From positions 32,354 to 96,353 of the forward strand of contig JAQTLZ010000004.1 in the NCBI GenBank assembly GCA_028714635.1: a DNA stretch of 64,000 bases. Reading direction: 5' to 3'. Under the pieces are notes generated by a model. The model searched no databases. It was not told the origin of the DNA and saw nothing but the letters and a program-made list of their open reading frames with translations. The DNA comes from Minisyncoccota bacterium. Its GTDB lineage: Bacteria > Patescibacteriota > Minisyncoccia > Phycocordibacterales > JAQTLZ01. Numbering within the stretch: position 1 is the stretch's first letter; each line of letters opens with the position of its first letter. This document shows, piece after piece, positions 27,382-51,788 of this stretch. The translations under genes and the position numbers were made by a program.

Positions 27382-28089
27382 TTATGCCTCAATATCCGAA
27401 AAAAGTATCACATGTTTCATTTCTTTAAGAATTCTTGCCGGGGTTTCTGAAAGATGTCCGGCTGGCGCAAATATTTTTCCTAAAGCTTGCCGTTTCTTCT
27501 CTCCAGTTGCGTACACAATAGATTTTTGTATTTTGCTTCGAATAAATGGAAGTGTGATTGTTACTCGATGCGGATACAGATTTTTCCCTTTAGCATCATA
27601 AGCTACAGCAATTTCATTTTGTTCGAAAAGTTTGTCGAAAAGATCAGGGTTTTCTGCAAATGGCAGAATACCTGCAGTATGGCCGTCTTCTCCTATTCCA
27701 AGAATTGCGATGATGTTTCCTTCCGGATTTTTCAAAATCCAATCCTCGATATTTTTTCTGAACCTCTCGCCGAATTGTTCGAAGGTCTCGTCCGTCTCAA
27801 CTCGTGAGTCAAAAAATTGCACCCCTCCTTTTGTTGCATCAGCAAAAAATTGAGTTTTTTGGAGCTGGCTGAAATTATTTATATTTTCATCAATACTGTA
27901 TCTTTCATCCCCCATTCCTATAGTAAGATTTGAAGAGAAAACTTTTGAATCTACAAAATCCAAAAAAGAGAAAGCGGAACCTCCCGCAAGGAGAAGGAGG
28001 GTGGGAATTTTTTCCGAAAAAAGATGCGAAAGTTTCTCACCAGCCCTTTCTTTTAAGATATTTTCGTTTTTTTCAAAATTTCTTTCCAT
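27382..28089 (-). CDS. pgl: 6-phosphogluconolactonase (NagB/RpiA-like fold).
   Basis: GIGEDGHTAGILP motif, and it is immediately downstream of zwf. Confidence 0.7.
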   Translation of the reverse strand: MERNFEKNENILKERAGEKLSHLFSEKIPTLLLLAGGSAFSFLDFVDSKVFSSNLTIGMGDERYSIDENINNFSQLQKTQFFADATKGGVQFFDSRVETDETFEQFGERFRKNIEDWILKNPEGNIIAILGIGEDGHTAGILPFAENPDLFDKLFEQNEIAVAYDAKGKNLYPHRVTITLPFIRSKIQKSIVYATGEKKRQALGKIFAPAGHLSETPARILKEMKHVILFSDIEA

Positions 28090-28171
28090 CCCGTTAGAAG
28101 CTAGCTTCGATTATTTTATAAACCTTCAAATTAAGCACGGTTTGCAGATGTTGGTTGCTTCTAACGGGATC
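28087..28171. repeat. 85-bp MITE-like element, copy A. It has 14-bp terminal inverted repeats ATCCCGTTAGAAGC and an internal GAAGCTAGCTTC palindrome.
   Basis: catcccgttagaagctagcttcgattat...gcttctaacgggat. The other copies are at 36101-36185 and 51704-51788 (inverted). Confidence 0.7.
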
Positions 28172-28182
28172 CATCCTCTTAG

Positions 28183-29598
28183 TTAAAAAGATGTCTTGGG
28201 GCCTTCCGACCCCTTTTTATACGAGAGAAGCGGGAGAGATTCCCAATGTTTGATGATGGGACTTACATATTTCCACGTCAGGTCTACTTCGCTTGTCGAG
28301 GGGAAAAGCGTCTGGTCTCCGCGGATACAATCGTAGAGCACTTTTTCGTAGGCGTCAGGAAGGGCTTTTTCTTCTACGCTTTCCCGATAAACATAGGATA
28401 GGTCTTTCGGTTCGACGGAAGAATCAAATCCAGGTTTTTTCATAAAATATTCTATAGAAATTCCTTCATTTGGTTGGATGGTGAATGTGATTTTGTTGCG
28501 GTGCTCGTGACCGTCGCCATTTGGACAAAGGCAGGTCGTGCAGGGTTTAAAAATCACCACAATTTCAGTCCGCATTTCGCTCAGAGCCTTTCCGCTTTCA
28601 AGATAAAAAGGTACATCCCGCCATCGTTCGTTATTGACGAACGCTTTGAGTTTGAAATATGTTTCGGTCGTGGATTCGGGATTTACATTCGACTCTCCTC
28701 GATAGCCTTCATATTGCGCGCGGACTGCATATTCTTCAATGTTTTTTACCGCCATAGGTACTAGCTTTTCAAATACTCGTGCCCGTTCTCGGCGGATACT
28801 CTCTGGTGTAAGGTTCCTTGGTCTTTCCATTGCTACAAGCGCGAGCATTTGCAAGATATGATTTTGTCCGACGTCTCGAAGCGCGCCGGTTGAATCATAG
28901 AAAGTTCCGCGCCCCAAAATATCGAGAGTTTCGAATAGTTTTACAGAAACCGATTCTATATGTTCTCCGCTCCAAAGATGTTCGAAAAGAGCGTTGGAAA
29001 AGCGGAATGTCAAGATATTTTGAAGCGTTTCTTTTGCTAAATAGTGGTCAATGCGAAAAATCTGCTCTTCTTCAAAGAGGTCAGAAAGGTGATGGTCGAG
29101 CTTGTGTGCAGTCTCTACGTCTCTTCCAAATGGCTTTTCAATGAGGACTCGTGTCCAACCCATATCGCCCCCGCATGGAATAGTAAGTCCAGAAAAGGAA
29201 AGGTGTCCAAGAATTCCTTCGTAGAGATCTGGAGGAACGGCTAGGTAGAAAAGTTTATTCGAGCATTGCCCGAGTCCGCCATCAATTTTTGAGAGCGTGT
29301 CCGAAAGATTTTTGTACGAATCAGCATTATCAAATGAACCTTCTCGGTAGCTTAAGTGATTAAGAAAATCAGAGAGATCGCTTTCACTCGCGGGCATCTT
29401 TTTGGTAATGAGCGTCTCTTTTATAAAATTCCTGAACTCGTCCGTAGAAAGGGAGCGGCGGGAGAAACCAACGATCTGGTATTTTGAAGGCAGAAACCCT
29501 TTCGTATGAAGCTCATAGAGAGACGGAAAAAGCTTTCTTTGAGACAAATCTCCCGTAACGCCGAATATGACAATTGTGGTGGGAGAAGTGGTCTCCAT
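28183..29598 (-). CDS. zwf: Glucose-6-phosphate 1-dehydrogenase.
   Basis: GVTGDLSQRKLFPSLY and RIDHYLAKE motifs. Confidence 0.9.
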   Translation of the reverse strand: METTSPTTIVIFGVTGDLSQRKLFPSLYELHTKGFLPSKYQIVGFSRRSLSTDEFRNFIKETLITKKMPASESDLSDFLNHLSYREGSFDNADSYKNLSDTLSKIDGGLGQCSNKLFYLAVPPDLYEGILGHLSFSGLTIPCGGDMGWTRVLIEKPFGRDVETAHKLDHHLSDLFEEEQIFRIDHYLAKETLQNILTFRFSNALFEHLWSGEHIESVSVKLFETLDILGRGTFYDSTGALRDVGQNHILQMLALVAMERPRNLTPESIRRERARVFEKLVPMAVKNIEEYAVRAQYEGYRGESNVNPESTTETYFKLKAFVNNERWRDVPFYLESGKALSEMRTEIVVIFKPCTTCLCPNGDGHEHRNKITFTIQPNEGISIEYFMKKPGFDSSVEPKDLSYVYRESVEEKALPDAYEKVLYDCIRGDQTLFPSTSEVDLTWKYVSPIIKHWESLPLLSYKKGSEGPKTSF

Positions 29599-29672
29599 GT
29601 AAAAAGTATATCAGACAGGCATATATTCTCATATAAAGAAATAAGGAACGGTCGCGAGCACGTTCCTTGGAC

Positions 29673-30032
29673 TTATGGAGGCAAAATTTCTGCCTTATCT
29701 GGTTCGAATGGGAGTTTGTCGCGGGTCAACAACCTTACTTCGATTCCGGTATCGATGTCGAGGACGTCCGCAATCTCTCGCGCGTTGCAGGTTGCCTCGA
29801 TGACGATCTTAAGTCTTCCCGGGTCTTTCATGAAACCATTGGTGTAAACGATAAATCTGCGTTCCACCAAAGTATTGATTTCATGTTCAGACCACCCACC
29901 CATTCGCGTAACCAATGAGTAAAGCTTGGGCTTCTCTTCAACCACAGTTGTGGTCTTCTGGCCACCTCTCCTGCCTTTCCCCAAATGCCTCCGGTGAGGA
30001 AAGTCTGCTGAGAGACGTATTTTTCTGTCCAC
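29673..30032 (-). CDS. Hypothetical small protein with an uncertain start. The alternative start MGGWSE at 29903 would give 76 aa.
   Basis: ORF-track ORF. The 5' third sits in a GC-rich stretch that may be noncoding. Confidence 0.3.
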   Translation of the reverse strand: MDRKIRLSADFPHRRHLGKGRRGGQKTTTVVEEKPKLYSLVTRMGGWSEHEINTLVERRFIVYTNGFMKDPGRLKIVIEATCNAREIADVLDIDTGIEVRLLTRDKLPFEPDKAEILPP

Positions 30033-30117
30033 TGCCTTTTCCTCCGTTTGGGGTTAACTTTGATGTTATGTTCACAGAGAGCCCGAGAACTGCTCTAATT
30101 CTTACTGTACAACTAGG

Positions 30118-30762
30118 CTATATTTTGTCAAAGTCAATGGTTTTCCCCAGCTCCATTTCTTGAAAAAAGATTTTACGGGGAGAAAACGCTATTTTTGATA
30201 ATCTATCGGTAATTTCAGTGTTTTTAAGGCCTCCATCGTGTACAGGAAAGATGATTTTCGGCTTACAGGCGAGCGCGAAATCAAAACTTTCTGAAATTTT
30301 GAGCCACGGTCCCGCTACTGGCAGGGCAAGAATTTCCGGCAGTTTAGGGGGGATATGAAGCGCGTCTCCCGGGTAATACAGACGGTTTGAAATAAAGTAT
30401 CCTGTGTTTTGAACTCGGGGAATCGTTTCGTAAACTTCGGCGTGGATGGTACCGAAGCCTTCGATTAAAACTCCTTCCTGTGTTTTGTTTTGTCCTTCTT
30501 CAAGAATTTCGTATTTAATTCCCTCTTTCTCTAAAAGAAGTCCGACGGCAGTATTGGTCATGATTCGCGCTTTTGGATTATTTTTGAGAACCGTTTTTAC
30601 CGAAGGAATATGAAAATGGTCTTGATGCTCGTGAGTGATCAAGATGATATCTATATTTTTGATTGAATCCTGGAGAGTTGAAAAACTTCCCGGGTCGGTC
30701 AAAATCCGCAAACTCTTTTCTTCAATAAGGAGACAGCAGTGACCGAGCTTGGTAATCTTCAT
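30118..30762 (-). CDS. MBL-fold metallo-hydrolase.
   Basis: HEHQDH metal-binding motif. Confidence 0.8.
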   Translation of the reverse strand: MKITKLGHCCLLIEEKSLRILTDPGSFSTLQDSIKNIDIILITHEHQDHFHIPSVKTVLKNNPKARIMTNTAVGLLLEKEGIKYEILEEGQNKTQEGVLIEGFGTIHAEVYETIPRVQNTGYFISNRLYYPGDALHIPPKLPEILALPVAGPWLKISESFDFALACKPKIIFPVHDGGLKNTEITDRLSKIAFSPRKIFFQEMELGKTIDFDKI

Positions 30763-30780
30763 TCCTCTAGTATACCAAAA

Positions 30781-31464
30781 TCACTTTCTTGCATTCAAGA
30801 TTTCTTCTGCGGTTTTAAGATCTTCAGGATAGCCGATTGGTATCCAAAGATCAGATACGACGCCGTACACGGGATACTCTTTTAGCATTTGCTCAATAAG
30901 TACTGGTAAATAGAGCTCTCCTTTGTATTCGTGAGCTTTGTAATTGAATACATTGTCATCAAGAAGATAGACACCATTTGAGACGAGATTGCTTTTCGGT
31001 TCGTCTGGTTTTTCAACAAGTTCTAGAATGCGATTATCTTTATCCATTTCCACTACGCCGAATCGCTCTGGATGTTCAGCCCGAGAAAGAAGTAAGGCGC
31101 GCTGGTAGACAAGCATTTTCTGGATGCTCTCTTTGTGATGGATATCGTCTGCGTACATAACCAAGAATCGCTCGCCTTCTGTAAGGAGATGCCGGCAGAG
31201 TTCCAATGCATGGGCCGTTCCTTTTTGCTCTTTTTGTTCAACGTAATCAATTTTTTTGCCTTTGTATGAATTACCGAATTTCTCTCGTATCATCTCGCCT
31301 TTGTAGCCGATTACAACAATTATTTCAGTAACTTCGTTTGGTAAAACATCAAAAACGCGCTCGAGAAGTGATTTTCCAAGGACAGTGAGGAGGGGTTTCG
31401 GAGTTGTGAGGGTGAGTGGCTGCATTCTCTTTCCCACTCCCGCGGCGATAATGACGGCTTTCAT
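30781..31464 (-). CDS. Sugar-phosphate nucleotidyltransferase (NTP_transferase family).
   Basis: MKAVIIAAGVGKRMQPLTLTTPKPLL. Confidence 0.8.
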   Translation of the reverse strand: MKAVIIAAGVGKRMQPLTLTTPKPLLTVLGKSLLERVFDVLPNEVTEIIVVIGYKGEMIREKFGNSYKGKKIDYVEQKEQKGTAHALELCRHLLTEGERFLVMYADDIHHKESIQKMLVYQRALLLSRAEHPERFGVVEMDKDNRILELVEKPDEPKSNLVSNGVYLLDDNVFNYKAHEYKGELYLPVLIEQMLKEYPVYGVVSDLWIPIGYPEDLKTAEEILNARK

Positions 31465-31478
31465 TTCTTAAAGAAAGA

Positions 31479-31721
31479 TTATGCGCTGGCTAAGATAACG
31501 ATACGGCTTTCTGGACGAATTTCTAAAACTCCGGATTTAATTTCGATAGATTTCTCTTGCCCGTCTTTTTCGATGATTTTCAAAATTCCAGGAACGAGCG
31601 TAGAAACCAAAGGGAGATGGTTCGGGAGAATAGTAATTTCTCCAGTCGTCGTCTTTGCGATAACTTTTGTAGCCTCTCCATTAAAGAGGGTGTCTTTGAT
31701 TGTATAGACTCCGACTTGCAT
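31479..31721 (-). CDS. atpC: ATP synthase epsilon chain.
   Basis: Start trimmed to the ATG MQVGVYTIKD...; the longer ORF uses a TTG start. Confidence 0.75.
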   Translation of the reverse strand: MQVGVYTIKDTLFNGEATKVIAKTTTGEITILPNHLPLVSTLVPGILKIIEKDGQEKSIEIKSGVLEIRPESRIVILASA

Positions 31722-31830
31722 ATGTTGATTGTTAGAGTTTTTTCTCGTCACACCTTTTAAAAAGACCGCTCCGGGCCGCTTGGCCAAGTCTTAGTCATTT
31801 TAAAAGCTGCAACTTCAAAAAAACTTTTAC

Positions 31831-34157
<2,327 letters not shown>

Positions 34158-34184
34158 TTGATTCTACTTACTACTTTCTACTGA

Positions 34185-35717
34185 CTATTTCTGCATCTTC
34201 ACCCATTCCGCCAAAGAATCTTTCAAAGTTTTAAGGATATCGTCTGACATTTCACCTGATTTCTTGATCGCTTCAAAAATTTTCTCTTTGTGCATCTTTT
34301 CAAGATAATCAATCACAGAAAGTGAGGCATCAACGATTTTCTCTGGAGCAATCGCGTCAAAATATCCATTTGTCGCTGTGTAAATAAGGACAGCTTGTTT
34401 CTCGAATGGAATTGGAGCGAGCTCATCTTGCTTCAAAGATTCTGAAAGCGCTTTTCCGCGAGTAAGGGTTTTTCGTGTCGATTCATCGAGATCAGATGCA
34501 AATTGAGAGAAAGCAGCGAGTTCTCGATACTGGGCGAGCTCAAGTCGTAGTTTCCCTGCCACTTTCTTCATCGCCTTTGTCTGCGCCGCAGAACCCACGC
34601 GTGATACGGAGAGTCCGACGTTTACCGCAGGACGAGTTCCTTGGTTGAAAAGTTCTGATTCGAGATAAATCTGTCCGTCGGTGATAGAAATAACGTTTGT
34701 TGGAATGTATGCAGCCACGTCTCCAAGCTGTGTTTCGATGATTGGAAGCGAAGTAAGCGAGCCTCCCCCATTTTCTTTCGAAAGTTTTGCTGATCGCTCG
34801 AGAAGTCTTGAGTGGAGATAGAAAATGTCTCCAGGATAAGCTTCACGGCCTGGCGGACGTCGGAGAAGAAGAGAAATTTCTCGATATGCTGTCGCCTGCT
34901 TTGAAAGATCGTCGTAAATCACGAGGGCATCTTTCCCTTTGTACATAAAATATTCTCCGATGGCGGTTGCACTGTATGGAGCCAAATATCGCATTGAAGT
35001 CGGAGCAGAAGATGGAGCAGAGACGACAATCGTGTATTTCATCGCGCCCGCAGCTTCAAGGGTCGCAATAATTTTTGCAATTTTTGATTCCTTCTGTCCG
35101 ATTGCGACGTAAATACAGATTGGTGTCTGGAACCGAGTATCGTTTTTCTGATTGATGATGGTGTCGATGCAAATAGACGTCTTACCCACTTGTCGATCTC
35201 CAATGACGAGCTGTCTCTGCCCTCGGCCGATCGGAATCATCGAGTCGATAGCTTTGATTCCGGTGTGAATCGGAGTATTTACAGGAGAACGTGCGATAAC
35301 AGACGGTGCTGTTCGTTCTGTAGGATAAAATTCGTGTTTTGAACCAGTTTTAAAAATAGGGCCTTTGCCATCAAGGGGATTTCCAAGAGGGTCAACCACT
35401 CGTCCGATCATTTCGTTCCCTACTGGTACAGAAAGCACGCGTCCTGCGTGAGTAACGATATCCCCCTCTTTAATTTTTTTATAATCTCCGAGAACGATAA
35501 CTCCGACGCTGTCTTCTTCGAGGTTGAAAGCCACGCCGGAAACTTTGCCAGAACTTGTTTCAAATTCCACCATTTCCTGCATCGAAACGTCAGAAAGTCC
35601 CGAAAGGCGGGCAATTCCGTCTCCCACTTCGGTCACTTTCCCGATCTTTTGGGCACGAGCTTCTCGTTTGTACCCAGTGATCTCATTTTTCAGATTTTCG
35701 ATGATTGGTGAAGGCAT
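34185..35717 (-). CDS. atpA: ATP synthase subunit alpha.
   Basis: GDRQVGKT Walker A motif and overall alpha-subunit sequence. Confidence 0.95.
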
Positions 35718-35719
35718 AA

Positions 35720-36103
35720 TTATGCGTTTATAAAAAGATTGTTAATGTGTTTGAGCGCGCTTGAATCGATAAAGACGGAATTATTTAAAAGTATTCGGAT
35801 TCCAGCGATAAGTCTTGGATTTACTTTTTCTTCGAGGAGTACTTTGTCTTTAAATATTCCTTCAATTTCTTTTCTTGTTTTTGCGGTCAAGGGATACGCT
35901 GATTCAACTTCTACTTTTGTCAGACCGTTCTTTTCGACAAATATTTTCTCGAAATGTTTGAGAATAAGCGGCAATCGAATCCAGTCTTTGTTTTTCTTTA
36001 CCGTCTGAACAAAATGCTGGATAAGTTTTTTTTCTTCTCCTTTTTTCGCTCCTTCCAGTGTCTCGTAGAGCGCTTCAGCATATTGTTTCGGCTTGTATTT
36101 CAT
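35720..36103 (-). CDS. atpH: ATP synthase delta (OSCP) subunit, a short form.
   Basis: Position between atpF and atpA, and OSCP-like sequence. It is 127 aa. Confidence 0.7.
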
Positions 36104-36185
36104 CCCGTTAGAAGCTAGCTTCGATTATCTGATAATGGTTCGATTTGGGCATGGTTTGTAAATATTGATTGCTTCTAACGGGATT
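36101..36185. repeat. 85-bp MITE-like element, copy B, inserted between atpF and atpH.
   Basis: catcccgttagaagctagcttcgattatctga...gcttctaacgggat. Confidence 0.7.
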
Positions 36186-36191
36186 CATAGG

Positions 36192-36707
36192 TTATTTATG
36201 GGTTGAAGCAGACTTCATCTCTTTCAATGCTTCCGCGATAAGTGCATTATCACGCTCATTGAAATCCATCTTTCCGATGACTTTTTCAAGCCCCATTCGG
36301 ACGAACATGCTCGCCTCTTTCCCCACTTCTTCGGCCATTCGTCCTCTTTCCTGCTCGATTGATTTGTGAGCGCTTTCCACCATTCCCTCGCTCTTTTTCT
36401 TCGAGTCTTCCATAATAGCTTCACCGCGCACTTTTGCAGTTGTCTCCGCAGCTTGCACCATTGAAAGCGCTTTTTTGTCAGCGGCGAGAATCCTTTCTTC
36501 CTCGATTATTTTTGTCTTGCTCAATCTCTCTTTCGATTCTTCGCTTGCTCGAAGTCCTTCCTCGATATCATCGGAGCGCTTTTTGAGCATCCCAAGGATC
36601 GGCTTGTAAGCAAATTTACCGAGAACAAAAGCGAGAATGGCAAAATTCACTACTTGTGCGAGTAGCAATTTCCAATCCACCCCCAGATGATTAAGAAGGT
36701 CACTCAT
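36192..36707 (-). CDS. atpF: ATP synthase subunit b.
   Basis: N-terminal TM helix plus a long charged helix. Confidence 0.8.
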   Translation of the reverse strand: MSDLLNHLGVDWKLLLAQVVNFAILAFVLGKFAYKPILGMLKKRSDDIEEGLRASEESKERLSKTKIIEEERILAADKKALSMVQAAETTAKVRGEAIMEDSKKKSEGMVESAHKSIEQERGRMAEEVGKEASMFVRMGLEKVIGKMDFNERDNALIAEALKEMKSASTHK

Positions 36708-36728
36708 GGCAGTATCTAACCTCCTTTA

Positions 36729-36956
36729 CTAGACGAACTTGATTATGAGTGCAACCACCAACGCGTAAATAGCGATAGCTTCAGCGAAAGCGATAGAAAG
36801 CACCATAGCTGTCTGAATTTTTGATGCTGCTTCTGGGTTTCGGCCGATAGATTCAAGGCCTTTTGATCCGATTTTTCCGATAGCAAGTGCTGGGAAAAGG
36901 GTTCCTCCGATAATAGTTGCTGCAACTGCGATCAACTTAATTGTGTCTATGTCCAT
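36729..36956 (-). CDS. atpE: ATP synthase subunit c.
   Basis: Two-TM hairpin with GRNPEAASK...the conserved Glu-containing FAEAIAIYALVVALI. Confidence 0.9.
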   Translation of the reverse strand: MDIDTIKLIAVAATIIGGTLFPALAIGKIGSKGLESIGRNPEAASKIQTAMVLSIAFAEAIAIYALVVALIIKFV

Positions 36957-37078
36957 TTTTATGTTTTTTAATGGCTAATAATAATGACTAAAATAAAGAA
37001 AACAAAAAAAGAAGCGCCCCCAGTATATCTCATGACTTGAAGAAAGTAAACGTACTTTACTCACGCGCTTCGTGGGGT

Positions 37079-39180: not shown

Positions 39181-39253
39181 GGGCCCATAGCTCAGCTGGT
39201 AGAGCAGTGCTTTTGCAAAGCAAAGGTCAGCGGTTCGAATCCGCTTGGGTCCA
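39181..39253 (+). tRNA. tRNA-Ala(UGC).
   Basis: Cloverleaf folded by hand. Anticodon TGC in the loop ctTTTGCAAag, the G3:U70 Ala identity pair, a TTCGAAT T-loop, discriminator A, and CC encoded. Confidence 0.9.
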
Positions 39254-40270: not shown

Positions 40271-40303
40271 AGAAAAATTATACCACAGAGAACATAGCCT
40301 AGA

Positions 40304-41515: not shown

Positions 41516-41588
41516 AATAGTGTTTTGAATGATACAGTAAGGGCCGTTACTTTGGCAAGGAAACCGAAAAGAAAAGGAGAATTCAGAG

Positions 41589-42341: not shown

Positions 42342-42392
42342 GTTTCTGAAGTTTGTTAGACGATATTGGGGTAAGCGCAAGCTTGCTCCTTT

Positions 42393-44999
42393 TTATTTCA
42401 AAGCTTTCTTCAAATATTTGCCTGTGTAAGACTTAGTATTATTGGCAACTTCTTCCGGAGTCCCCTTTGCCACCACTTTCCCTCCCCCATTTCCTCCTTC
42501 TGGACCGATATCAATAATATAGTCAGAACTTTTTATGACATCCATGTTGTGTTCGATCACGAGCACTGTGTTACCGTGCTTCACCAGCCTTTGCAAAATT
42601 TCAATTAGTTTTCGCACATCTTCGTAGTGAAGGCCGATTGTCGGCTCATCCAAAATGTAAAGTGTCTTTTGAAGATGAGGACGGTATAGCTCTGACGAAA
42701 TTTTTACTCTTTGCGCTTCCCCGCCGGAAAGCGTTGTCGCTGATTGGCCAAGTCTTAAATATCCAAGACCCACCTCATCAAGTGTCTTCATTCGATCATA
42801 AATAGCTGGAATATCCTCGAAGAATTTGAGTCCTTCTTCTACTGTCATCTGAAGCACATCATAAATACTTTTCTTTTTGTATTTAATTTCGAGCGTTTCT
42901 TTCATGAATCGCTTTCCTTCACAGACTTCGCAAGGAACGTAGACTGTCGGCAAAAAATGCATTTCAACGGCAATCATTCCGTTTCCCTGGCAGTTTTCAC
43001 AGCGTCCGCCTTTTACATTGAATGAAAATCGATTGGCTTTCCATCCGCGAGCGCGAGCTTCGGCTGAAGCTGCAAAAAGATCTCGGATGAATATCCACGA
43101 ACCTGTGTAGGTTACAGGATTTGAACGAGGAGTTCGGCCGATCGGACTTTGGTCAATGAGAATCGTTCGTCCAATATATTCGCTTCCTGTGAATGAAGAG
43201 CAATTGTGAGTATCGTTTGAACGGAAATGGCGTTCAAGTCGGCATTGGAGATTTTTATGGATTATTTCGTACACGAGGGAGGATTTCCCAGAACCAGACA
43301 CACCGGTCACGCTCACAAGTCTGCCAAGCGGAACATCGAGATCCATATTTTTAATATTGAAGATATTTCCGTTGCGGATTTTCAGCGCACCTTTTTCTTC
43401 AGTTCGTCTTTCTTCCGGCGGTTCTATTGCCGTTTCTCCGCGCAGATATGAAAGAGTAAGAGATTTCGAATCATTTTTCTTGGCCAGAAGAAGTTTTTCA
43501 AGATAATCGGCGACAACGATTTCTCCGCCGTGTACTCCTGCTCCCGGGCCAATGTCTACTATGTAATCCGATGCAAAAATCGTATCTTCGTCATGTTCTA
43601 CAACGACAATAGTGTTTCCAATATCACGAAGGTGGAGCAGGGTTTTAATAAGTCGGTCATTATCTCTCGCATGAAGACCGATGGTCGGCTCATCAAGCAC
43701 ATAGAGCGCTCCCACAAGCCCGGAACCAAGTTGTGAAGCGAGGCGAATTCGCTGCGCTTCTCCACCCGAGAGCGTATGGGCGCGCCTATCGAGAGAGAGA
43801 TAATCAATACCGACATCGATCATAAATTGGAGCCTACTTTCAATTTCTTTTATGATCACCTTCGAGATATTTTTTTCTGTGGCGGTGAGTTTGAGTTTCG
43901 AGAAAAAATCAAAACAATCCGCGATAGACATTCCAACCAGATTCACAATATTTACTTTTCCTTCGCCAAGAAATACATGAAGGGCTTCTTCCCGAAGCCG
44001 AGCGCCTTTGCACTTTGGACAGGGTTCTTCACCGAAAAAATGTTTTGTTCCAAGTCCGTTACATTCTGGACACGCTCCATATGGGGAATTGAAGGAGAAA
44101 AGGCGGGGCTCGATTTCTGGATATGAAAATCCATCATATGCGCACATGAATTTTGCAGAGATGAGATGCTCTTTTGTTTCTCCGCCTTCTCCGGGGTATT
44201 CGATTCGGAGAAGTCCGTCAGATTCGGCAAGTGCACGTTCAATCGCTTCACTAAGCCTTTCGTGAGCTCCACTTTTTGATTTTAGATCTTTGAGTTCTGT
44301 GACGAAAATTTCATCAACAACCACATCAATGTCGTGCTTTTGAGTTTTGGAAAGAATAATTTGTTCCCGCAACTTTTTATTTTTCCCATCCACTCGCACT
44401 TCTTTATATCCTTTCCCGAGAAGATCGTAGAGAAGTTGGTAATATTCACCTTTTCTTCCAACAACAAGGGGCGACAGAATTCGAATTTTAAGAGTATCGT
44501 ATACGACTCCCATTACCTTTTTAGTTGTACCAGTTTCGATAGATTCGACAGTTTTGAGAATCGTTTCAAGAATTTCTTCGTTCGTATGCTTTTTAATAAC
44601 TCTTCCGCAAATGAGACAGTGTGGTTTGCCTACACGAGCGTAAAGAATACGGAGGTAGTCGTAAATTTCTGTGATAGTAGCAACAGTTGAGCGAGGATTA
44701 TTCGAGCGGGATTTTTGGTCGATTGAAATTGCAGGAGAAAGGCCGATGATCTCGTCCACATCCGGCTTTTGCATTTGGCGCAAGAATTGTCGAGCGTATG
44801 AAGAAAGAGATTCGACATATCGCCGCTGTCCTTCAGCAAAAATGGTATCGAACGCCAAAGACGACTTCCCGCTTCCGGAAAGCCCTGTGAAAACAACCAT
44901 TTTATTGCGAGGCATCTCTACCGTCACATTTTTTAGGTTGTGGGTGCGGGCGCCCCTGATAACTAATTTATCTTGATTTTCCTTCATAAAAGACAGCAA
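42393..44999 (-). CDS. uvrA: Excinuclease ABC subunit A.
   Basis: Two ABC cassettes ([12 protein letters not shown] / [11 protein letters not shown]) and zinc-finger cysteines. Confidence 0.95.
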
Positions 45000-45057
45000 A
45001 GACCTACGCGGTGACGCATAGGGTTATGTATGAATTGTTCTAGTCTACTATAATCTT

Positions 45058-45092
45058 AGAAAAAGAAAAAGCTCGAACCGAAGTCCGAGCTC
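45058..45092 (-). terminator. Minus-strand hairpin with a T run that ends the uvrB/kinase transcript.
   Basis: gagctcggacttcggttcgagc followed by tttttcttttt on the minus strand. Confidence 0.45.
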
Positions 45093-45405
45093 CGTGGAAA
45101 TCCTTTCGAACTTCTAAAAGAGTATGCTTCCAGGGCTCCAACTGAAGGAGCGATGATTTTTCTTGATCGTTTCCGGATGTGATCTCGGAGACGACTCGAA
45201 GTCTTGGGGTTGGGATGGTTCTACTTGGGGCATGATCTTTTCGCCCCTTCGTTCCATCTCTGCGAAAACCTCGACAATGTTACAGCGTTTTGAAAGGCCA
45301 CCGCGAGCCTCTTTTCCTTGTAGCATTTGCGCTAATCTCCTTTCCCGTGTTGTACTTCCCCGAACAGGTATAGCAAAAAGAAACCTTGAGGTCAAAGTGG
45401 AAAAG

Positions 45406-46122
45406 TTAGGAAACTGTCTTATTTGTTGGAATAGTGAAGAAAAATGTGGTTCCTTTTCCCTCTTCGCTTTCAAACCATATTTTTCCTCCCTGTCCTTCGA
45501 GCACATTTTTGATGATGTAAAGCCCAAGTCCGATTCCATCCCTTCTCTGCTTAATTGCGTTTTTCGCGCGGAAAAATTCGCTGAAAATCTTCGGCTGTTC
45601 TTCTTTCGAAATTCCAATTCCTTGGTCAGAAACTGATACTGTAAATTCATCTTTACCCGGAACTAATTTCACGCTTATTTTCGTACCTGGTTTTGAATAA
45701 GTTACGGCGTTTTCTATGAGGTTTTGAAGTATGGTATGAATTTTATTTGGATCTACAACCAAGGGAGGAAGTGAAAGTCCTTCTGTCTCAAAAACTAAAT
45801 CAATTCCATAGCGTTCTGCCAAAGGAAGGAAGCTTGTGACAATATTTGAGATGAGATCCACAACTTGGGTTTCCTCGTAGTTGTACTGAAATTTTCCAGA
45901 CTTCAATGTATCTAAACTTAAAATATCATTCACAATTGCAATGGTGTTGTCGTTGTCCTCATAACATTTTTCCAGAACTTTCATTTGCTCGTCATTCAAA
46001 GGCCCAAGATCGCCTTTGAGTACTCCGGATAATGTCCATTTAATTCCTGCGAGAGGTGTGCGCAACTGGTGTACGAGAATAGTAGCAAAATCACCTTTTG
46101 CATCTTTTTTTTCTTCAGACAT
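45406..46122 (-). CDS. Soluble sensor histidine kinase (HisKA + HATPase_c), with no TM segment or sensor domain.
   Basis: H-box HQLRTPL, the G-box GIGLGLYIIK, and the GKIWFESEEGKGTTF region. Confidence 0.85.
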   Translation of the reverse strand: MSEEKKDAKGDFATILVHQLRTPLAGIKWTLSGVLKGDLGPLNDEQMKVLEKCYEDNDNTIAIVNDILSLDTLKSGKFQYNYEETQVVDLISNIVTSFLPLAERYGIDLVFETEGLSLPPLVVDPNKIHTILQNLIENAVTYSKPGTKISVKLVPGKDEFTVSVSDQGIGISKEEQPKIFSEFFRAKNAIKQRRDGIGLGLYIIKNVLEGQGGKIWFESEEGKGTTFFFTIPTNKTVS

Positions 46123-46137
46123 GGGAATATTCTAACA

Positions 46138-48171
46138 CTAAGACTTTTTCTTAGCCATTGAGTTTTGCAACATCGCAATCTCGTCTCGAAGAAGTGCTGC
46201 GGTCTCAAAATCGAGTACTTTTACGGCAGCATTCATCTGTTTCTCTTTTTCTTTAATAAATTTTGCAGGATTCTTCTTAAAAAATTTATCATCAAGCTCG
46301 ATCAAATTTTTGAGCGTTTTCGAGTGCTTGTTTTCCATTGTCTCGGTAATGTCATGAATTTTCTTCAGAATCGTTTTGGGAGTGATGCTGTGTTTCGTAT
46401 TATAAGCGACTTGAAGAGCCCTGCGACGATTGGTCTCGCTTATCGCTCTTTCCATTGAACCGGTCATGTTGTCAGCATAAAGAATCACGTGGCCAAGCAC
46501 GTTTCGGGCGGCACGGCCGATAGTTTGAATGAGCGAGGTTTCAGAGCGGAGAAATCCCTCCTTGTCAGCATCCAAAATTCCGATGAGCTCAACTTCCGGC
46601 AGATCAAGCCCTTCTCGCAGTAAGTTTACCCCGACTATGCAGTCAAATTTCCCTTTTCGAAATTCAGTTAGAATTCTAATGCGATCAAGCGTTTCGATGT
46701 CGCTATGCAGATATTCCGCTTTTACGCCGCGCTCTTTGAGATATTCGCTCAAATCTTCTGCCATTTTTTTGGTGAGCGTTGTCGCGATAACACGATTCCC
46801 TCTTTTAATCACCGCTTCGGCTTCCATTATGAAGTCCTTGATTTGACCTTGAAATTTTCCTTTTGAAATGATTGGACGGATAATTATTTCAGGATCAATA
46901 AGACCTGTTGGGCGAATGACCTGCTCAACTATCTGTTGGCTTTCTTTTTTTTCATATTCTCCCGGAGTGGCGGACGTATAAATTACTTGTCCAACTCTTT
47001 CTCGAAATTCTTCGGCCTTGAGTGGGCGATTATCTTTCGCGGAAGGAAGTCGGAAGCCGTGTTCGATCAAAGTTTTCTTTCGAGAAGCATCCCCAGCGTA
47101 CATTCCTCCAATTTGGGGCACAGTTACGTGCGATTCATCTATAATAGTGAGAAAATCTGCTGAACCATCTGCTTTGTGCGGGAAATAGGAAAGCAAAGAG
47201 TCTGGCGGTTCACCTTCCATTTTCCCCGAGAAGTGTCGAGAATAGTTTTCAATTCCGTTGCAATAGCCAACTTCGCGGATGAGCGCCAGATCGTATCTTG
47301 TTCGTCGCTTGATTCTCTCTGCTTCCAAAAGCTTTCCTTCCTTATCGAATTTTTTGATTTGTTCTTTGAGCTCGGCTTCGATAGTTTGGAGGGCGCTTTT
47401 TACTCCTTCGGAAGTGCTGATGAAATGTTTTGCCGGAAAAAGGAAAAAATTGTCCACGTTTTCTAAAACTGAACGGCTGATTGCATCAATGACTTCAATC
47501 TCGTCGATGACACTTTCTTTGAAACTTAAACGGTAAATGAGTTTCTCATTGACCGGCATTATTTCAATCGCATTTCCAAGTGCCCTGAAAAGTCCGGGCT
47601 CAAGGTCAGCATTAGTGCGTTCAAAATGGAGATTTACCAGTTTTCGAATGAAATCTGCGCGTGAAATAACCTGATTCTTTTCAATTTTCAAATTCACCTT
47701 CTCATATTCAACCGGAGAACCCAAACCGTAAATACAAGAAACCGAAGCAACAATAATGACATCACTTCGCGTGAGAAGTGCCTGTGTCGATGCGTGGCGA
47801 AGTCGGTCAATTTCATCATTTATCATTGCCTCCTTTTCGATATATGTGTCGGTGGTTGGCAAATACGCTTCCGGCTGGTAGTAGTCGTAATACGAAACAA
47901 AATAATGCACAGCATTTTCTGGGAAAAATTCTTTGTATTCTTGAGCGAGCTGGGCAGCGAGCGTTTTGTTGTGAGCAATGACAAGCGTCGGTTTCTGAAC
48001 TTTTTCGATGATGTTTGCGACAGTAAAAGTTTTCCCAGAACCGGTAACCCCAAGAAGTGTTTGGTGATTCATTCCTTCTTTGAGCCCCTTTACGAGTGCA
48101 GAAATAGCGAGTGGCTGGTCACCCGCAGGTTTGAATTCCGATTTCAACTTGAATTTCTTTTCTAACTTCAT
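46138..48171 (-). CDS. uvrB: Excinuclease ABC subunit B.
   Basis: GVTGSGKTFT Walker A motif, helicase motifs, and a C-terminal UVR domain (...AALLRDEIAML). Confidence 0.95.
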   Translation of the reverse strand: MKLEKKFKLKSEFKPAGDQPLAISALVKGLKEGMNHQTLLGVTGSGKTFTVANIIEKVQKPTLVIAHNKTLAAQLAQEYKEFFPENAVHYFVSYYDYYQPEAYLPTTDTYIEKEAMINDEIDRLRHASTQALLTRSDVIIVASVSCIYGLGSPVEYEKVNLKIEKNQVISRADFIRKLVNLHFERTNADLEPGLFRALGNAIEIMPVNEKLIYRLSFKESVIDEIEVIDAISRSVLENVDNFFLFPAKHFISTSEGVKSALQTIEAELKEQIKKFDKEGKLLEAERIKRRTRYDLALIREVGYCNGIENYSRHFSGKMEGEPPDSLLSYFPHKADGSADFLTIIDESHVTVPQIGGMYAGDASRKKTLIEHGFRLPSAKDNRPLKAEEFRERVGQVIYTSATPGEYEKKESQQIVEQVIRPTGLIDPEIIIRPIISKGKFQGQIKDFIMEAEAVIKRGNRVIATTLTKKMAEDLSEYLKERGVKAEYLHSDIETLDRIRILTEFRKGKFDCIVGVNLLREGLDLPEVELIGILDADKEGFLRSETSLIQTIGRAARNVLGHVILYADNMTGSMERAISETNRRRALQVAYNTKHSITPKTILKKIHDITETMENKHSKTLKNLIELDDKFFKKNPAKFIKEKEKQMNAAVKVLDFETAALLRDEIAMLQNSMAKKKS

Positions 48172-48278
48172 ATCGAGAAACTATACTATTCTGATAGATA
48201 AAAACAAAGGGCATCTTGACGACGCCCTTGTAACACGAATATTGCTGCAAAGATATGAGTCGGTTCTGGCCCCGACAA

Positions 48279-48530
48279 TCAGCATCCGATGAGATGACAC
48301 AGGCGGGTCCACCAGCTCACTTTTTTCAGATGGCCGACATAGACATGCCTGACCTCGTTCGGGTGGCCATCGAACCGCACGTGGCAGTGACTGATATCGA
48401 ATTGCGAATGATTAGTGATCCTTCCGGAGGTGCCGGCATCAACGACGAGCTTATAATTGTCGCCGTAAATTGGCGCTCCCGTAATCACTGACGTCCCAAC
48501 TGGCAGATCTGCCACCGTAACTGTTCTCAT
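48279..48530 (-). CDS. Hypothetical small protein in a GC-rich island.
   Basis: ORF-track ORF only. Confidence 0.25.
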   Translation of the reverse strand: MRTVTVADLPVGTSVITGAPIYGDNYKLVVDAGTSGRITNHSQFDISHCHVRFDGHPNEVRHVYVGHLKKVSWWTRLCHLIGC

Positions 48531-48709
48531 GGCTTGTCCCTCTCCTAATCTGGTCTTCCCCCGTTTGTACTACGCCCAACGCCAAATTGCATCATACACA
48601 AATATCCAATTTTTCTCAATAATGAAAAGTAGCCACGGTCGTGAGACACGTGGCTACGGTTATTGTTTATCTGCTCGCCCAGTGCGAAGCAGATTTACTT
48701 CTGGTTTTG

Positions 48710-50038
48710 TTACGCGCCCGGCTTAAAGCTGAAGCTCTGCACTTGCACGGCTTTCTTCAAGTTGGCCTTCTTTTTGGGGTTGTGTACAAAGACGATCACC
48801 CCCGTGCTGCTGTCTATTGTACGGCCGGTAAATGTTGCTTCTAGGCCATACAATACAGGATCCTGCTCTGCAACGCCGGTGAGCGTTTTCTTCCCATTCA
48901 AACCGTCCACAACATAGTAGTGAACAATCAAATGGTCGGAGCTTGTAGTTGTCGGGTTCACTGTCGGCTTCACAACACCCTTACCGCCCGCGGAAATCGT
49001 AAACGGCGCCGAAAATGCTCGAAAGGTGCGGTCAGTCTTCTCAACGAAGATCTGATACACACCCGGCGGAACATCATACTCGATGTACCATTGCGTTTCC
49101 TCGGAGTCGGGGAAAAAGTTTTCGGCAATAGAGCCGACCCACTTCATCGAGGTGTCAATCCTTCGGACCATCACATTTGCCCTGACGAGTCCGTCAGAGC
49201 TATACCCAAACCTCAGGTAATCCCCCAAGGAGTACTCATACTGGAGCGGGTATACGCTGATTTGCGTATCAGTGATCGTGAAATAGCTTTCGCTTTGACC
49301 GCCGTAATACCCCTGCACGGTAACGCGATACACACCTGCATGTGTTCCGATTGGTATCGGCGCGTCTCCTTTTCCCGCGATAAACATTTCATCGGGGATA
49401 GTGATAAACAACCGGTGGCCGTAGCCGTATTCAGATTCCAGATACTCGAACCTGCGGAACGCTCCCGTGTCGATATTTTGAATCAACACGGAACTTCCAT
49501 ATTGCTGGAAATCACCGCCGTAGATGGTCAACTCCTCTCCCACAGCTATGATTTCCGGATCGAGAAATGAAATCGTCGGCGGCGAAATCAAATTGAAAAC
49601 GCTGCCACGAATGTTCCCGACGAACGTTCCGTTACCCTTCCCATCGCTGAAAAGGGAAATTTGGATGAAGTACAGGCCGTCCGGCAGCTGTGCGCCGGTA
49701 TCGGTTGTTCGTGGTTGGAAATCCACCCACGTGTACTCATCCTGTACTGGTGTCCCGAAACTAATCGTAGACACATACACATCCTGATAGCCCATCGGGC
49801 TCGGCATCAAGTACCAGAGGCTTGCCTGCAGGTTCGTGATGCCGAGATCCGGATTGATTCGCACAGTCACCGTGTAGTACTCACCGGTGACCAACGTCGA
49901 GCCGTTATCGGGCCATCTGACCTCAGCGTCAAGCCCAGCCGCGGGCATTGCTTGCGGTTCCTCCGCCACAGCGAATGTCATGGGCGCACAGCCCAGAAAC
50001 ATCGCGACCAAAAAACCAGAAAAGATTTTGAAGAACAT
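48710..50038 (-). CDS. Secreted protein with beta-sandwich (Ig/IPT-like) repeats; GC-rich.
   Basis: Signal peptide MFFKIFSGFLVAMFLGCAPMTFAVA. A GGAGG Shine-Dalgarno site lies 7 nt upstream of the ATG at 50038. Repeated ...ISPPTISFLDP.../...ITDTQISVYP... modules. Confidence 0.6.
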   Translation of the reverse strand: MFFKIFSGFLVAMFLGCAPMTFAVAEEPQAMPAAGLDAEVRWPDNGSTLVTGEYYTVTVRINPDLGITNLQASLWYLMPSPMGYQDVYVSTISFGTPVQDEYTWVDFQPRTTDTGAQLPDGLYFIQISLFSDGKGNGTFVGNIRGSVFNLISPPTISFLDPEIIAVGEELTIYGGDFQQYGSSVLIQNIDTGAFRRFEYLESEYGYGHRLFITIPDEMFIAGKGDAPIPIGTHAGVYRVTVQGYYGGQSESYFTITDTQISVYPLQYEYSLGDYLRFGYSSDGLVRANVMVRRIDTSMKWVGSIAENFFPDSEETQWYIEYDVPPGVYQIFVEKTDRTFRAFSAPFTISAGGKGVVKPTVNPTTTSSDHLIVHYYVVDGLNGKKTLTGVAEQDPVLYGLEATFTGRTIDSSTGVIVFVHNPKKKANLKKAVQVQSFSFKPGA

Positions 50039-50170
50039 TGTGTAGCCTCCTAAATTTGAAGCCTCCGCCACGAAATGAAAAAGCCGGATGATTCCAGCTT
50101 TAATTCATCTCCCTACCTACTAGGAGTATAGCACATCTGGGCATTAAAGTCAATAGTTTTTAGCCTTACT

Positions 50171-51442
50171 TTAGGCCATATTTGGGCGGAATCTTGCTAA
50201 GAATTCTTCTTTGAGTTCTTGAAAGTTGCCGTCGATAATCCCCTGTCGAGCTGTTTTTACCAGATTTACAAGAAAATAAATGTTATGAATTGAACCGAGC
50301 GTTCCCGCAAGCATTTCATCAGAGCGGAAAAGGTGCGAAATATAAGCGCGAGAATAATTCTGGCAAGTGTAGCATCCGCAATCTTTTTCGATTGGAGAAA
50401 AATCTTTTGTGAACCGAGCGTTCGTAATCCCCACTCTTCCGTCTTTTGTATAAATAGAACCATTGCGCGCGAGACGAGTCGGAAGCACGCAATCAAAAAG
50501 ATCTACGCCATTTTCAACTCCTTCCCACAAGTCAGTTGGTTCACCGATTCCTAAAAGGTGTCTCGGCTTCTCTTCTGGTAAAATTTCATTCACCCATTTC
50601 ACCGCAGTTCCCATATCTTCTTTGTTAAATGAACCTCCAATTCCAAATCCGTCAAAATCCATTCCACTGATTTGTTTTGCGGAAATTTTTCGCAAATCTT
50701 CGTATCTGCCCCCCTGAACTATTCCGAACAAAGCCTGCTTTTCGGAATGCGGTTGTGATTTGTGGTAATCGAGAGAGCGTTTTGCCCAGCGATGAGTCCT
50801 GTCCATTGCCTCTTTTTGATATTGAAGCGGAGCACTCGGAGATGTACATTCGTCAAAAGCAAAGATCATATCGGCGCCGATGTTGTGCTGAATTTCGATA
50901 GAGCGTTCTGGCGTAAAACGATGCATGCTTCCGTCGCGGTGCGATTTGAACGTTACCCCTTCTTCGTCGATGACTGCGAGTTGTGGTGAGATTTTATTCT
51001 CTTCTTGTTCATTCGTATCATCGTGAAGGTCTTCTGTTTTGGCGAATTTCGTAATACCTTTTTTATACGCAACGCCAAGTGAAAAAACCTGAAATCCTCC
51101 CGAGTCTGTCATGGTGGGTCCGTGCCAGTTCATGAATTTGTGAAGTCCGCCGGCGTCTTTCACCAGTTTGTCTCCGGGTTGAAGATAGAGGTGATAGGTA
51201 TTGGCGAGTACAACTTCTGTCCCGCAAGCCCTCACTTGTTCCACGTTTACTGATTTTATGGTTGCATTTGTCCCCACCACTACATATGCGGGCGTTTCAA
51301 TTTTCCCATGAGGCGTTTCCAAAATACCGGCTCGCCCCAGCTTTCCTTTGAGTTTCTTTTCAATTTTGAATTTTATGGCTCGCATAGTTTTTTGGTGGGG
51401 GGACATAAAAGGCCGTATTGATACGGCCTTTTCCTTATACAA
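50171..51442 (-). CDS. tgt: Queuine tRNA-ribosyltransferase. The true start is probably MRAIKF at 51385.
   Basis: DSGGFQVFSLG motif and the zinc site CxCxxC...H. Confidence 0.9.
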   Translation of the reverse strand: MYKEKAVSIRPFMSPHQKTMRAIKFKIEKKLKGKLGRAGILETPHGKIETPAYVVVGTNATIKSVNVEQVRACGTEVVLANTYHLYLQPGDKLVKDAGGLHKFMNWHGPTMTDSGGFQVFSLGVAYKKGITKFAKTEDLHDDTNEQEENKISPQLAVIDEEGVTFKSHRDGSMHRFTPERSIEIQHNIGADMIFAFDECTSPSAPLQYQKEAMDRTHRWAKRSLDYHKSQPHSEKQALFGIVQGGRYEDLRKISAKQISGMDFDGFGIGGSFNKEDMGTAVKWVNEILPEEKPRHLLGIGEPTDLWEGVENGVDLFDCVLPTRLARNGSIYTKDGRVGITNARFTKDFSPIEKDCGCYTCQNYSRAYISHLFRSDEMLAGTLGSIHNIYFLVNLVKTARQGIIDGNFQELKEEFLARFRPNMA

Positions 51443-51454
51443 TAGAAAAATATT

Positions 51455-51616
51455 CTATTGTGGTAACTGTGCCGTATCGATTGCCGCCGGTGAAATTTCC
51501 GGCATGGCTGAATTTCCCTGGATGCTTTTAAGCACCTGAGGGAATATCATAAAAACTCCCACGATGACAAGAGCAACCACCACTCCAATCCACTCCTTTT
51601 TGCTTAATTTTTTCAT
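51455..51616 (-). CDS. Candidate small membrane protein (53 aa); not in the ORF track.
   Basis: My translation gives MKKLSKKEWIGVVVALVIVGVFMIFPQVLKSIQGNSAMPEISPAAIDTAQLPQ, with one TM helix. A terminator hairpin (aaaaggccgtattgatacggcctttt) follows at 51398-51426. Confidence 0.35.
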   Translation of the reverse strand: MKKLSKKEWIGVVVALVIVGVFMIFPQVLKSIQGNSAMPEISPAAIDTAQLPQ

Positions 51617-51703
51617 GCGATAAAATGAAAAAGGATATTAATATAGTGTAATCATATACTCACAGACTATTTTACGCAATGCATGTTATAGTACCTTCCT
51701 ATG

Positions 51704-51788
51704 AATCCCGTTAGAAGCAACCAATATTTACAAACCATGCATAAACTTAACATTTACCAGATAATCGAAGCTAGCTTCTAACGGGATG
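51704..51788. repeat. 85-bp MITE-like element, copy C, inverted relative to A and B. It ends exactly at the ATG of the pseudouridine synthase gene.
   Basis: atcccgttagaagcaaccaatattt...ataatcgaagctagcttctaacgggATG. Confidence 0.7.

Follow-up and report, generated by a model that had tools for sequence, protein, structure and literature searches.

Copies of the element and the genes that they precede

We analysed a 64-kb stretch of genomic DNA from a Minisyncoccota bacterium (64,000 nucleotides of contig JAQTLZ010000004.1, hereafter the window), in which an 85-nt element with terminal inverted repeats is found in three copies (A, B, and C), each ending at the start codon of a gene. One more copy (D) was found in a sister species; the number expected by chance is about zero. 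Copy A lies between zwf (glucose-6-phosphate dehydrogenase; 28183..29598, minus strand) and pgl (6-phosphogluconolactonase, 235 aa; 27382..28089, minus strand; Pfam Glucosamine_iso), whose start, ATGGA at 28085-28089, is at the same time the proximal direct repeat of the copy. Copy B lies between atpF (ATP synthase b subunit; 36192..36707, minus strand) and atpH (ATP synthase delta subunit/OSCP, 127 aa; 35720..36103, minus strand; Pfam OSCP), whose start, ATGAA at 36099-36103, is conserved in four relatives. Copy C precedes a gene for a pseudouridine synthase of the rluB/rluF type (245 aa; 51786..52523, plus strand; Pfam S4 and PseudoU_synth_2; start ATGAA at 51786-51790), hereafter rluB, whose orthologues P0006 and P0007 are likewise 245 aa long. 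The gene identities come from Pfam matches on identical or orthologous proteins. Together with the open reading frames (ORFs) they confirm what a preliminary description of this DNA had claimed, namely that each copy abuts the ATG of pgl, atpH, or rluB and that copy B stands between atpF and atpH. It had also described three copies with 14-bp inverted repeats and an internal palindrome, all of which we found at the same positions.

Copy A, counted as an 85-nt insertion with a second ATGGA, occupies 28085..28174 on the minus strand and reads ATGGA-TCCCGTT...AACGGG-ATGGA on the gene strand. Its 5′ arm, ATCCCGTTAGAAGC (28157..28170, minus strand), spans codons 2-6 of the mini-ORF described below, its 3′ arm, GCTTCTAACGGGAT (28088..28101, minus strand), holds the TAA of this mini-ORF and the AT of the pgl ATG, and the palindrome GAAGCTAGCTTC lies at 28097-28108. 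Copy B, an 85-nt insertion with a second ATGAA, occupies 36099..36188 on the minus strand, with arms at 36171-36184 and 36102-36115 and the palindrome at 36111-36122. Copy C, again 85 nt with a second ATGAA, occupies 51701..51790 on the plus strand (arms 51705-51718 and 51774-51787; palindrome 51767-51778). All three end in CTAACGGG-ATG, and this ATG opens the ORF of the host gene (27382-28089 and 35720-36103 on the minus strand, 51786-52523 on the plus strand).

The 21-mer of the conserved end, GAAGCTAGCTTCTAACGGGAT, occurs exactly three times in the window (28088-28108 and 36102-36122 on the minus strand, 51767-51787 on the plus strand), and in 100 dinucleotide-preserving shuffles no match was found even when up to three mismatches were allowed. 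Of the 12-nt arm core CCCGTTAGAAGC there are six occurrences, which form three inverted pairs; 0.19 would be expected. In the window the palindrome is confined to the three copies, and it is perfect in all four copies including copy D. The 14-nt arms ATCCCGTTAGAAGC and GCTTCTAACGGGAT match perfectly in each of the window copies and at all but one position in copy D. The inverted repeats are found at both ends, the local palindrome at the proximal end only. The element length of 85 nt is 3n+1, with a core of 80-83 bp and inverted repeats of 12-14 bp depending on how the ends are assigned. Each site in the window holds one unit, with no tandem arrangement.

On the gene strand every copy has the layout ATG-R-ATCCCGTTAGAAGC ... 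GCTTCTAACGGG-ATG-R-A. An alignment of the copies in gene orientation shows conservation from an ATG onwards, three bases further out than had been described. The preliminary description had noted that the distal ends read GGGATC or GGGATT and not GGGATG. These letters are correct, but the full distal end is GGGAT[C/T]CAT, which on the gene strand is ATG-[G/A]-ATCCC and gives a second ATG at the far end.

Copy D (L001, 1796-1880) was found by a 19-mer scan of one genome per GTDB species. It lies on JAQTSY010000006.1 of the metagenome-assembled genome (MAG) STB_28, labelled Candidatus Paceibacterota, has the same layout as the window copies, and likewise sits on a gene start, that of an M15/VanY-type peptidase. 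The change in its 5′ arm, AGA to CGA, is synonymous (Arg) and breaks one stem pair. Copy C is identical in a second assembly of the window's own species, GCA_028711105.1, whose contig L002 is 99.99% identical to window positions 43807-55071. The gene spacings in contig L016 are those expected with copies A and B present. Since the copies recur in the independent assemblies L002 and L016, an assembly artefact is excluded. Look-ups with the AtpH and RluB proteins of the window returned only assemblies that carry the element.

Empty orthologous sites and target-site duplication

Orthologous loci of relatives were fetched through homologues of AtpH, RluB, and the M15 peptidase. The 85 nt are missing from the atpF-atpH site in L004, L006, L007, and L009, from the zwf-pgl site in L004, L006, and L009, from the rluB site in L011 and L012, and from the M15 peptidase site in L014 and L015. 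At site B, the sister species STB_28, whose nucleotide identity to the window is about 73-93%, has TAA-CCC-ATGAAATAT between atpF and atpH, whereas the window has TAA-CCT-ATGAA-[80 nt]-ATGAAATAC; in three more distant genomes the two genes are likewise separated by 2-3 nt. At site A, a gap of 1-8 nt separates zwf from pgl in the three relatives, and the pgl start of the sister species is ATGGAA. Two relatives have TGyTATAGT-N8-ATGAAGAAA at site C, and two have TGyTAsAAT-N6-GTGAAAAAA at site D, in each case with the element missing.

A blastn alignment of the window with L004 breaks exactly at the element, and its two blocks overlap in L004 by exactly the 5 nt ATGAA. A 5-nt direct repeat, ATGRA, flanks all four copies (ATGGA on both sides at A, ATGAA on both sides at B, C, and D), so that the R is the same on both sides within each copy, and the empty sites carry one ATGRA (GTGAA at site D). 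The 5-nt overlap and the empty sites bear the signature of a transposable element whose target-site duplication includes the start codon. Each site is filled in one lineage only, sisters and outgroups having it empty, so parsimony favours gain over repeated precise loss. The preliminary description had proposed a small non-autonomous mobile element, for which the inverted repeats, the duplication, the lack of a transposase, and the presence or absence of the element among relatives all speak; the comparison of orthologous loci that it had suggested gave the empty sites.

The exact length of the duplication is ambiguous because the inverted repeat overlaps the direct repeat (a left A and a right AT are shared). 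Three geometries fit equally: the duplication may be 5 bp long around a core of 80 bp, 4 bp long (TGRA) if the inverted repeats have 13 bp, or 2 bp long (GR) if they have 14 bp.

The host ATGs are native starts, since they are present at the same place in relatives without the element; the idea that the true starts might lie further downstream finds no support at these loci. As ATGRA is duplicated, one start codon stays with the gene and the other keeps the original upstream context. The earlier claim that the element carries or creates a start codon is thus half right: a start codon is created, because the target duplication copies the ATG, and it is the distal one, which opens the mini-ORF, while the proximal ATG is the host's own.

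An ancestral conserved leader peptide or attenuator, or a product of chance or assembly at the three junctions, would look superficially similar in that a short ORF and a hairpin stand before a gene. This likeness is the sole point in its favour, and with orthologous sites empty in two to four relatives per site, a chance expectation near zero, and copies in independent assemblies, we regard this explanation as extremely improbable.

At the empty site A of the sister species (L004, 18316-18329) we observed TAA-CGAACGGG-ATGGAA, and the element end at window positions 28085-28098 reads TAA-CGGG-ATGGAA (CTAACGGG), the two matching at 7 of 8 bases. This could be a coincidence, a target preference for sequences that resemble the element end, or a footprint. 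The left junction of the window at this site is CTAAGAGG.

The mini-ORF

In all four copies a frame of 26 codons is open from the distal ATG and closes with a TAA that lies within the proximal arm and is followed, 4 nt later, by the host ATG. It is the sole forward frame that is open from the ATG to the terminal TAA. Mini-ORF A (28094..28174, minus strand; 26 codons and TAA), with the product MDPVRSNQHLQTVLNLKVYKIIEASF, begins 8 nt past the stop of zwf, and 4 nt separate its end from the pgl ATG. Mini-ORF B (MNPVRSNQYLQTMPKSNHYQIIEASF; 36108..36188, minus strand) stands in the order atpF TAA-CCT-ATG of the mini-ORF...TAA-CGGG-ATG of atpH. Mini-ORF C (MNPVRSNQYLQTMHKLNIYQIIEASF) lies at 51701..51781 on the plus strand, and the mini-ORF of copy D in STB_28 has the product MNPVRSNKYLQTMLNLNIYQIIEASF. 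The 8-nt spacer between the zwf stop and mini-ORF A (28175-28182) is CTAAGAGG, in which a Shine-Dalgarno (SD)-like AGAGG abuts the ATG and is too near to it for normal SD function. In the gene tables of the NCBI MAG contigs no gene is called in the gaps that hold the element.

When the insertions were modelled in inverted orientation, stop and start came to lie 22-64 nt apart, except that copy A, with a 5-bp duplication assumed, gave an out-of-frame overlap of 17 nt. The 4-nt spacer arises only in the orientation observed, and this explains why all four copies have a single orientation.

The 26-aa peptide itself (MNPVRSNQYLQT...YQIIEASF) might be the functional product, in which case the element would be a mobile microprotein gene, a small gene family that borrows the expression signals of its hosts. 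None of the four copies interrupts the frame, synonymous differences are seen at several Leu, Arg, Asn, and Tyr codons, and the ratio of nonsynonymous to synonymous polymorphism (pN/pS) is about 0.35 in the mini-ORF frame against 0.49 and 1.26 in the other two. The four copies have 20 variable columns, all at positions 4-60, and 3 of the 20 fall on second codon positions. However, this codon-position bias is not significant (chi-square p ~0.2), the ratio of frame 2 is similar, and the best-conserved parts are conserved at the nucleotide level, synonymous sites included, which points to a constraint on DNA or RNA. No Pfam or NCBIfam match was found for the peptide. Among 1.84 billion protein representatives there was one match (E=2e-4), to a 4126-aa protein, which gave no local alignment and was rejected as spurious. 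The evidence for selection on the peptide is weak, and a requirement for an open frame alone, as needed for translational coupling, is sufficient to explain the mini-ORF data including the missing stops. We therefore consider a microprotein gene very unlikely.

Predicted hairpin and sequence conservation

In the predicted RNA a 14-bp stem is dominant in all three window copies (−22.5 to −27.4 kcal/mol; z-scores −2.4 to −4.7). In it, codons 2-6 of the mini-ORF are base-paired to a segment that includes the stop codon, the spacer, and AU from the host AUG. Within the terminal ~41 nt, two positions vary among the four copies, one of them inside the duplication, whereas the loop diverges by 14-32% between copies. 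At four-fold degenerate sites of the flanking genes, the two species differ by 20-53%. Either the copies are old and their ends have been constrained in place, or they are recent insertions from several diverged sources with conserved ends. Invariant ends with a diverged middle are typical of families of MITEs (miniature inverted-repeat transposable elements).

The near invariance of the ends would also fit a constraint on resident copies. The predicted stem sequesters the host AUG, and the palindrome is perfect in four of four copies. Whatever its origin, the hairpin with its mini-ORF might accordingly have been exapted as a regulatory cassette, kept as a translational control that co-regulates pgl, atpH, and rluB, for example by gating through mini-ORF translation or by a protein that binds GAAGCTAGCTTC. 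Invariant ends are, however, equally expected of transposase-binding sites, and the stem shows no covariation, its sole change breaking a pair and keeping the amino acid. The functions of the host genes are unrelated to one another, copy D adding yet another type of gene. The element is absent from every orthologous locus examined in relatives and the palindrome is found nowhere else in the window, which also removes the ground from the shared cis-regulatory leader or operator that the preliminary description had given as its alternative. An exapted cassette thus appears unlikely to us.

Genome context

In a crude gene map the window has 65 genes and is about 91% coding. An SD-like motif was found at 4 of 57 starts. 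The statement that the three host genes have no SD site is correct, but it does not set them apart: with so few SD-like motifs, the missing SD characterises the genome and not the element. At 11 of the 57 starts an extended −10 box (TGnTAnnnT) has its end 6-9 nt ahead of the start codon, where well under one would be expected by chance as estimated from the motif frequency; examples are at 1032-1040, 9856-9864, 29605-29613, 40277-40285, 46129-46137, and 58242-58250. Relatives share this box at sites C and D, where its distance from the start is constant across species. At site C it is TGTTATAGT (51684..51692, plus strand), 8 nt 5′ of the ATG, and its distance from the rluB ATG is the same in the element-free relatives. 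After the insertion, this box would drive a leaderless or near-leaderless mRNA whose predicted start coincides with that of the mini-ORF.

The first genes of transcription units would then be leaderless, and coupling over very short spacers would serve the translation of the genes downstream. Leaderless mRNAs would accordingly be the main route by which first cistrons are translated in this Paceibacterota genome.

Searches for further copies, known families and a transposase

No matches to the element were found by blastn in plasmid and phage collections, no diverged copies in the window or L001 with an nhmmer profile or a tblastn search with the peptide, and no new copies in any fetched locus with nhmmer or a search for the arms with up to three mismatches. 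One JGI metagenome match to the 19-mer (L003) is GC-rich and was rejected as chance. At the gathering score of Rfam the element is unmatched, the sole match in the window being a tRNA (39181-39253).

The preliminary description had also allowed for a promoter inside the element, which our consensus scan did not bear out: it gave one promoter-like site, in copy D only, whose −10 part is not conserved in the other copies. The site in question (L001, 1822-1849) reads TTTACA-16 nt-AATATT, and the −35-like TTTACA is common to B, C, and D. We also considered an integron attC site, as the arms contain GTTAGAA/TTCTAAC; on inspection alone, the polarity was opposite to that of attC R″/R′ and the last core base did not fit, and the candidate was dropped.

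The sole transposase-like gene in the window is a Y1/IS200-type ORF (2070-2771, minus strand; 233 aa; Pfam Y1_Tnp, E=6.7e-7); a Pfam search of the window ORFs not yet annotated by synteny, among them 34 further ones, revealed no other transposase. The unit to which it belongs (2048-2826), IS200-like or RAYT-like, adjoins the ribosomal protein genes rpsI-rplM. The Y1 ORF is flanked by two 23-nt perfect palindromes headed by GTAG, GTAGCAAGGAyTGTCCTTGCTAC, at 2051-2073 and 2800-2822, whose stems extend by four paired bases that differ between the two (CACT..AGTG and ACCC..GGGT). The stop codon of the Y1 ORF lies inside one of these hairpins, and a convergent ORF (1228-2112, plus strand) runs through the same hairpin.

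The element might accordingly be moved in single-stranded form by a HUH (Y1) transposase, as a hairpin of the REPIN or PATE kind, and not by a DDE enzyme. It would insert 3′ of ATGRA, and the apparent duplication would be the target plus the element end. Besides the Y1 gene with its palindromes, the ability of the element to fold as one long hairpin in single-stranded DNA favours such a mechanism, as does the target specificity of 4-5 nt of Y1 elements (IS200/IS605). The inverted repeats are, however, true terminal ones and not two subterminal hairpins of like orientation. At site A the ATGGA found on both sides is the native pgl start of the sister species, which fits a true duplication better than a fixed element end. 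A link to the Y1 gene through sequence was tried and rejected: CCCGTAGCAAGG resembles CCCGTTAGAAGC by eye, but an alignment scan across the window gave dozens of equal or better matches, so the likeness of the arms to the GTAG palindromes is within chance. Mobility by a Y1 enzyme is in our view highly unlikely.

Position at start codons and a proposed mechanism

The window has 352 ATGRA sites on both strands, 16 of them coinciding with predicted starts, 25 in intergenic DNA, and all others within genes. All copies of the element are at gene starts and in sense orientation. If insertion were random among all ATGRA sites, four copies at starts would have a probability of about 4e-6, (16/352)^4, and this model is excluded. 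Inside a gene, an insertion of 85 nt (3n+1) would be lost anyway. The association with start codons is real.

We consider it likely that the element is a MITE of low copy number which either targets start codons or survives when inserted there, and that its mini-ORF hands ribosomes on to the host gene by termination-reinitiation. The displaced ATG keeps its original context, 3-8 nt past the upstream stop at A and B and 6-8 nt past the −10 box at C and D, and opens the mini-ORF. Ribosomes would initiate at the old position, translate the mini-ORF, terminate, and reinitiate 4 nt downstream, so that the host gene would still be expressed. With the paired arms covering the host AUG, the gene would be translated only by ribosomes that had opened the stem while reading the mini-ORF. 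The insertion thus probably does not shut the host gene off. Previous work has indicated that termination-reinitiation depends steeply on distance, with spacers of ~20 nt nearly abolishing it and very short spacers being variably tolerated (PMC10666635). Given the apparent near absence of 5′ untranslated regions and SD motifs, either only copies in this position and orientation would be tolerated, or the transposase would target ATGRA starts.

Several points weigh against this interpretation. There are very few copies (3 + 1): GTDB species representatives, JGI metagenomes, and IMG/VR gave no further true match to the exact 19-mer, and neither an autonomous element or transposase with matching ends nor any further arm-like sequence was found in the window and ~190 kb of relatives' DNA. 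If only start and intergenic ATGRA sites are considered, the chance of finding four of four copies at starts is about 0.02, and four copies cannot separate targeting by the transposase from the survival of harmless insertions. The duplication may be 5, 4, or 2 bp long, which the sequence alone cannot decide. Mini-ORF translation, reinitiation, and leaderless transcription are all steps that we infer from the sequence. A stable stem 4 nt after the mini-ORF AUG could also hinder initiation instead of being neutral.

A further-reaching proposal, which we regard as possible but doubtful, is that the element or its transposase recognises the starts of leaderless or tightly coupled genes. The element would then be a portable coupling cassette, an independent counterpart, of the terminal-inverted-repeat type, of the MIRUs (mycobacterial interspersed repetitive units) in the candidate phyla radiation (CPR). 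Its hairpin would make translation of the host gene strictly dependent on the mini-ORF and could be co-opted to co-tune pgl, atpH, and rluB.

Under the likelier reading, that of a low-copy MITE with a coupled mini-ORF, a repeat seems able to survive in a packed genome by landing on a start codon, copying it, and acting as a translatable spacer that hands ribosomes on. The element would then be a minimal natural system, 85 nt long, for leaderless initiation followed by termination-reinitiation. As gene callers skip the 26-codon ORF, operon and start-site annotation near such elements can mislead.

Other features of the window

An inserted domain unusual for the enzyme is found in a leucyl-tRNA synthetase ORF (19235-22339, minus strand; 1034 aa), where Pfam Ham1p_like (ITPase family) matches residues 230-370 (E=7.8e-6). 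A telomere-like sequence, AGGGTTTAGGGT(N)AGGGT (CCCTAAACCCT on the gene strand), is found at 6652-6675 and 16477-16500, directly 5′ of two unrelated genes, rpsM (6261-6641) and yceG (15504-16463), whose promoter regions may have it as a common motif. At the 5′ end of an EamA-type ORF (54675-55574), two 20-nt arms form a perfect inverted repeat around a loop of 4 nt (TATACCCAGGCACTAACTTT/AAAGTTAGTGCCTGGGTATA; 55562-55605), and this repeat overlaps the predicted GTG start of the ORF.

Comparison with known systems

The element resembles bacterial MITEs in its small size (85 nt), terminal inverted repeats, target-site duplication, lack of a transposase, several dispersed copies, and predicted RNA hairpin. 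It has all the testable characters of a MITE except a known parent insertion sequence (IS). Known families such as Correia/NEMIS, RUP, and MITEAba12 are co-transcribed with neighbouring genes and fold as RNA hairpins (PMC3184786, PMC2229807). They are mostly intergenic or fused in frame to gene ends, whereas this element sits on start codons and has a very low copy number. In the literature we found no bacterial MITE described with a start-codon target duplication and a complete stand-alone coupled ORF, and none in Patescibacteria.

Neisseria REP2 and the Borrelia IR are repeats immediately 5′ of unrelated genes and fused to their translational starts, and REP2 units bring their own promoter, ribosome-binding site, and ATG (PMC3184786). 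REP2 lacks terminal inverted repeats. Our element has no conserved promoter or ribosome-binding site, leaves the host its native ATG, and adds a separate upstream ORF. The palindromic elements of Rickettsia (RPEs) are mobile repeats with an open frame whose insertion is tolerated by translation (PMC3184786). However, they lie in frame within coding sequences and become part of the host protein, while the 3n+1 element forms a separate cistron with a stop and a restart.

With REP/REPIN-RAYT systems and the PATEs of IS200/IS605 the element shares short hairpin-forming repeats, and the window holds a Y1 gene with GTAG palindromes. It differs from the former in having no GTAG-headed unit, arms without significant similarity to 2051-2073/2800-2822, and direct repeats. 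PATEs have subterminal hairpins of like orientation, no terminal inverted repeats, and no duplication; the element has terminal inverted repeats, a local palindrome at its proximal end only, and at site A an ATGGA repeat that matches the native target. It also differs from a leader peptide or attenuator, being absent from all orthologous loci examined and placing the same peptide before four functionally unrelated genes.

The closest functional analogue is the MIRU, which shares with the element the insertion at a start codon and an internal ORF before the host gene; for the element, we infer the coupling. MIRUs are units of 46-101 bp, often in tandem (variable-number tandem repeat) arrays and without long terminal inverted repeats, and their coupling is by a −4 overlap (ATGA). 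Their hosts, the mycobacteria, are reportedly rich in leaderless transcripts. The element, compared here by architecture and not by sequence, instead has one unit per site, inverted ends of 14 bp, an ATGRA duplication of 5 nt, a +4 spacer, a long-range stem over the AUG, and a host in another phylum (Patescibacteria/CPR). Previous studies have indicated that MIRUs insert at start codons, that their internal ORF is coupled to the downstream gene, and that the impact on expression is minimal (PMC12548453, citing Supply et al. 1997). If coupling holds for the element as well, two unrelated lineages, both apparently rich in leaderless transcripts, would share one solution, which would suggest a general rule for tolerated insertions. 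A coupled repeat that inserts at start codons is thus already known from the MIRUs; what is new is its form with inverted repeats and a target duplication, the hairpin over the AUG, and the CPR host.

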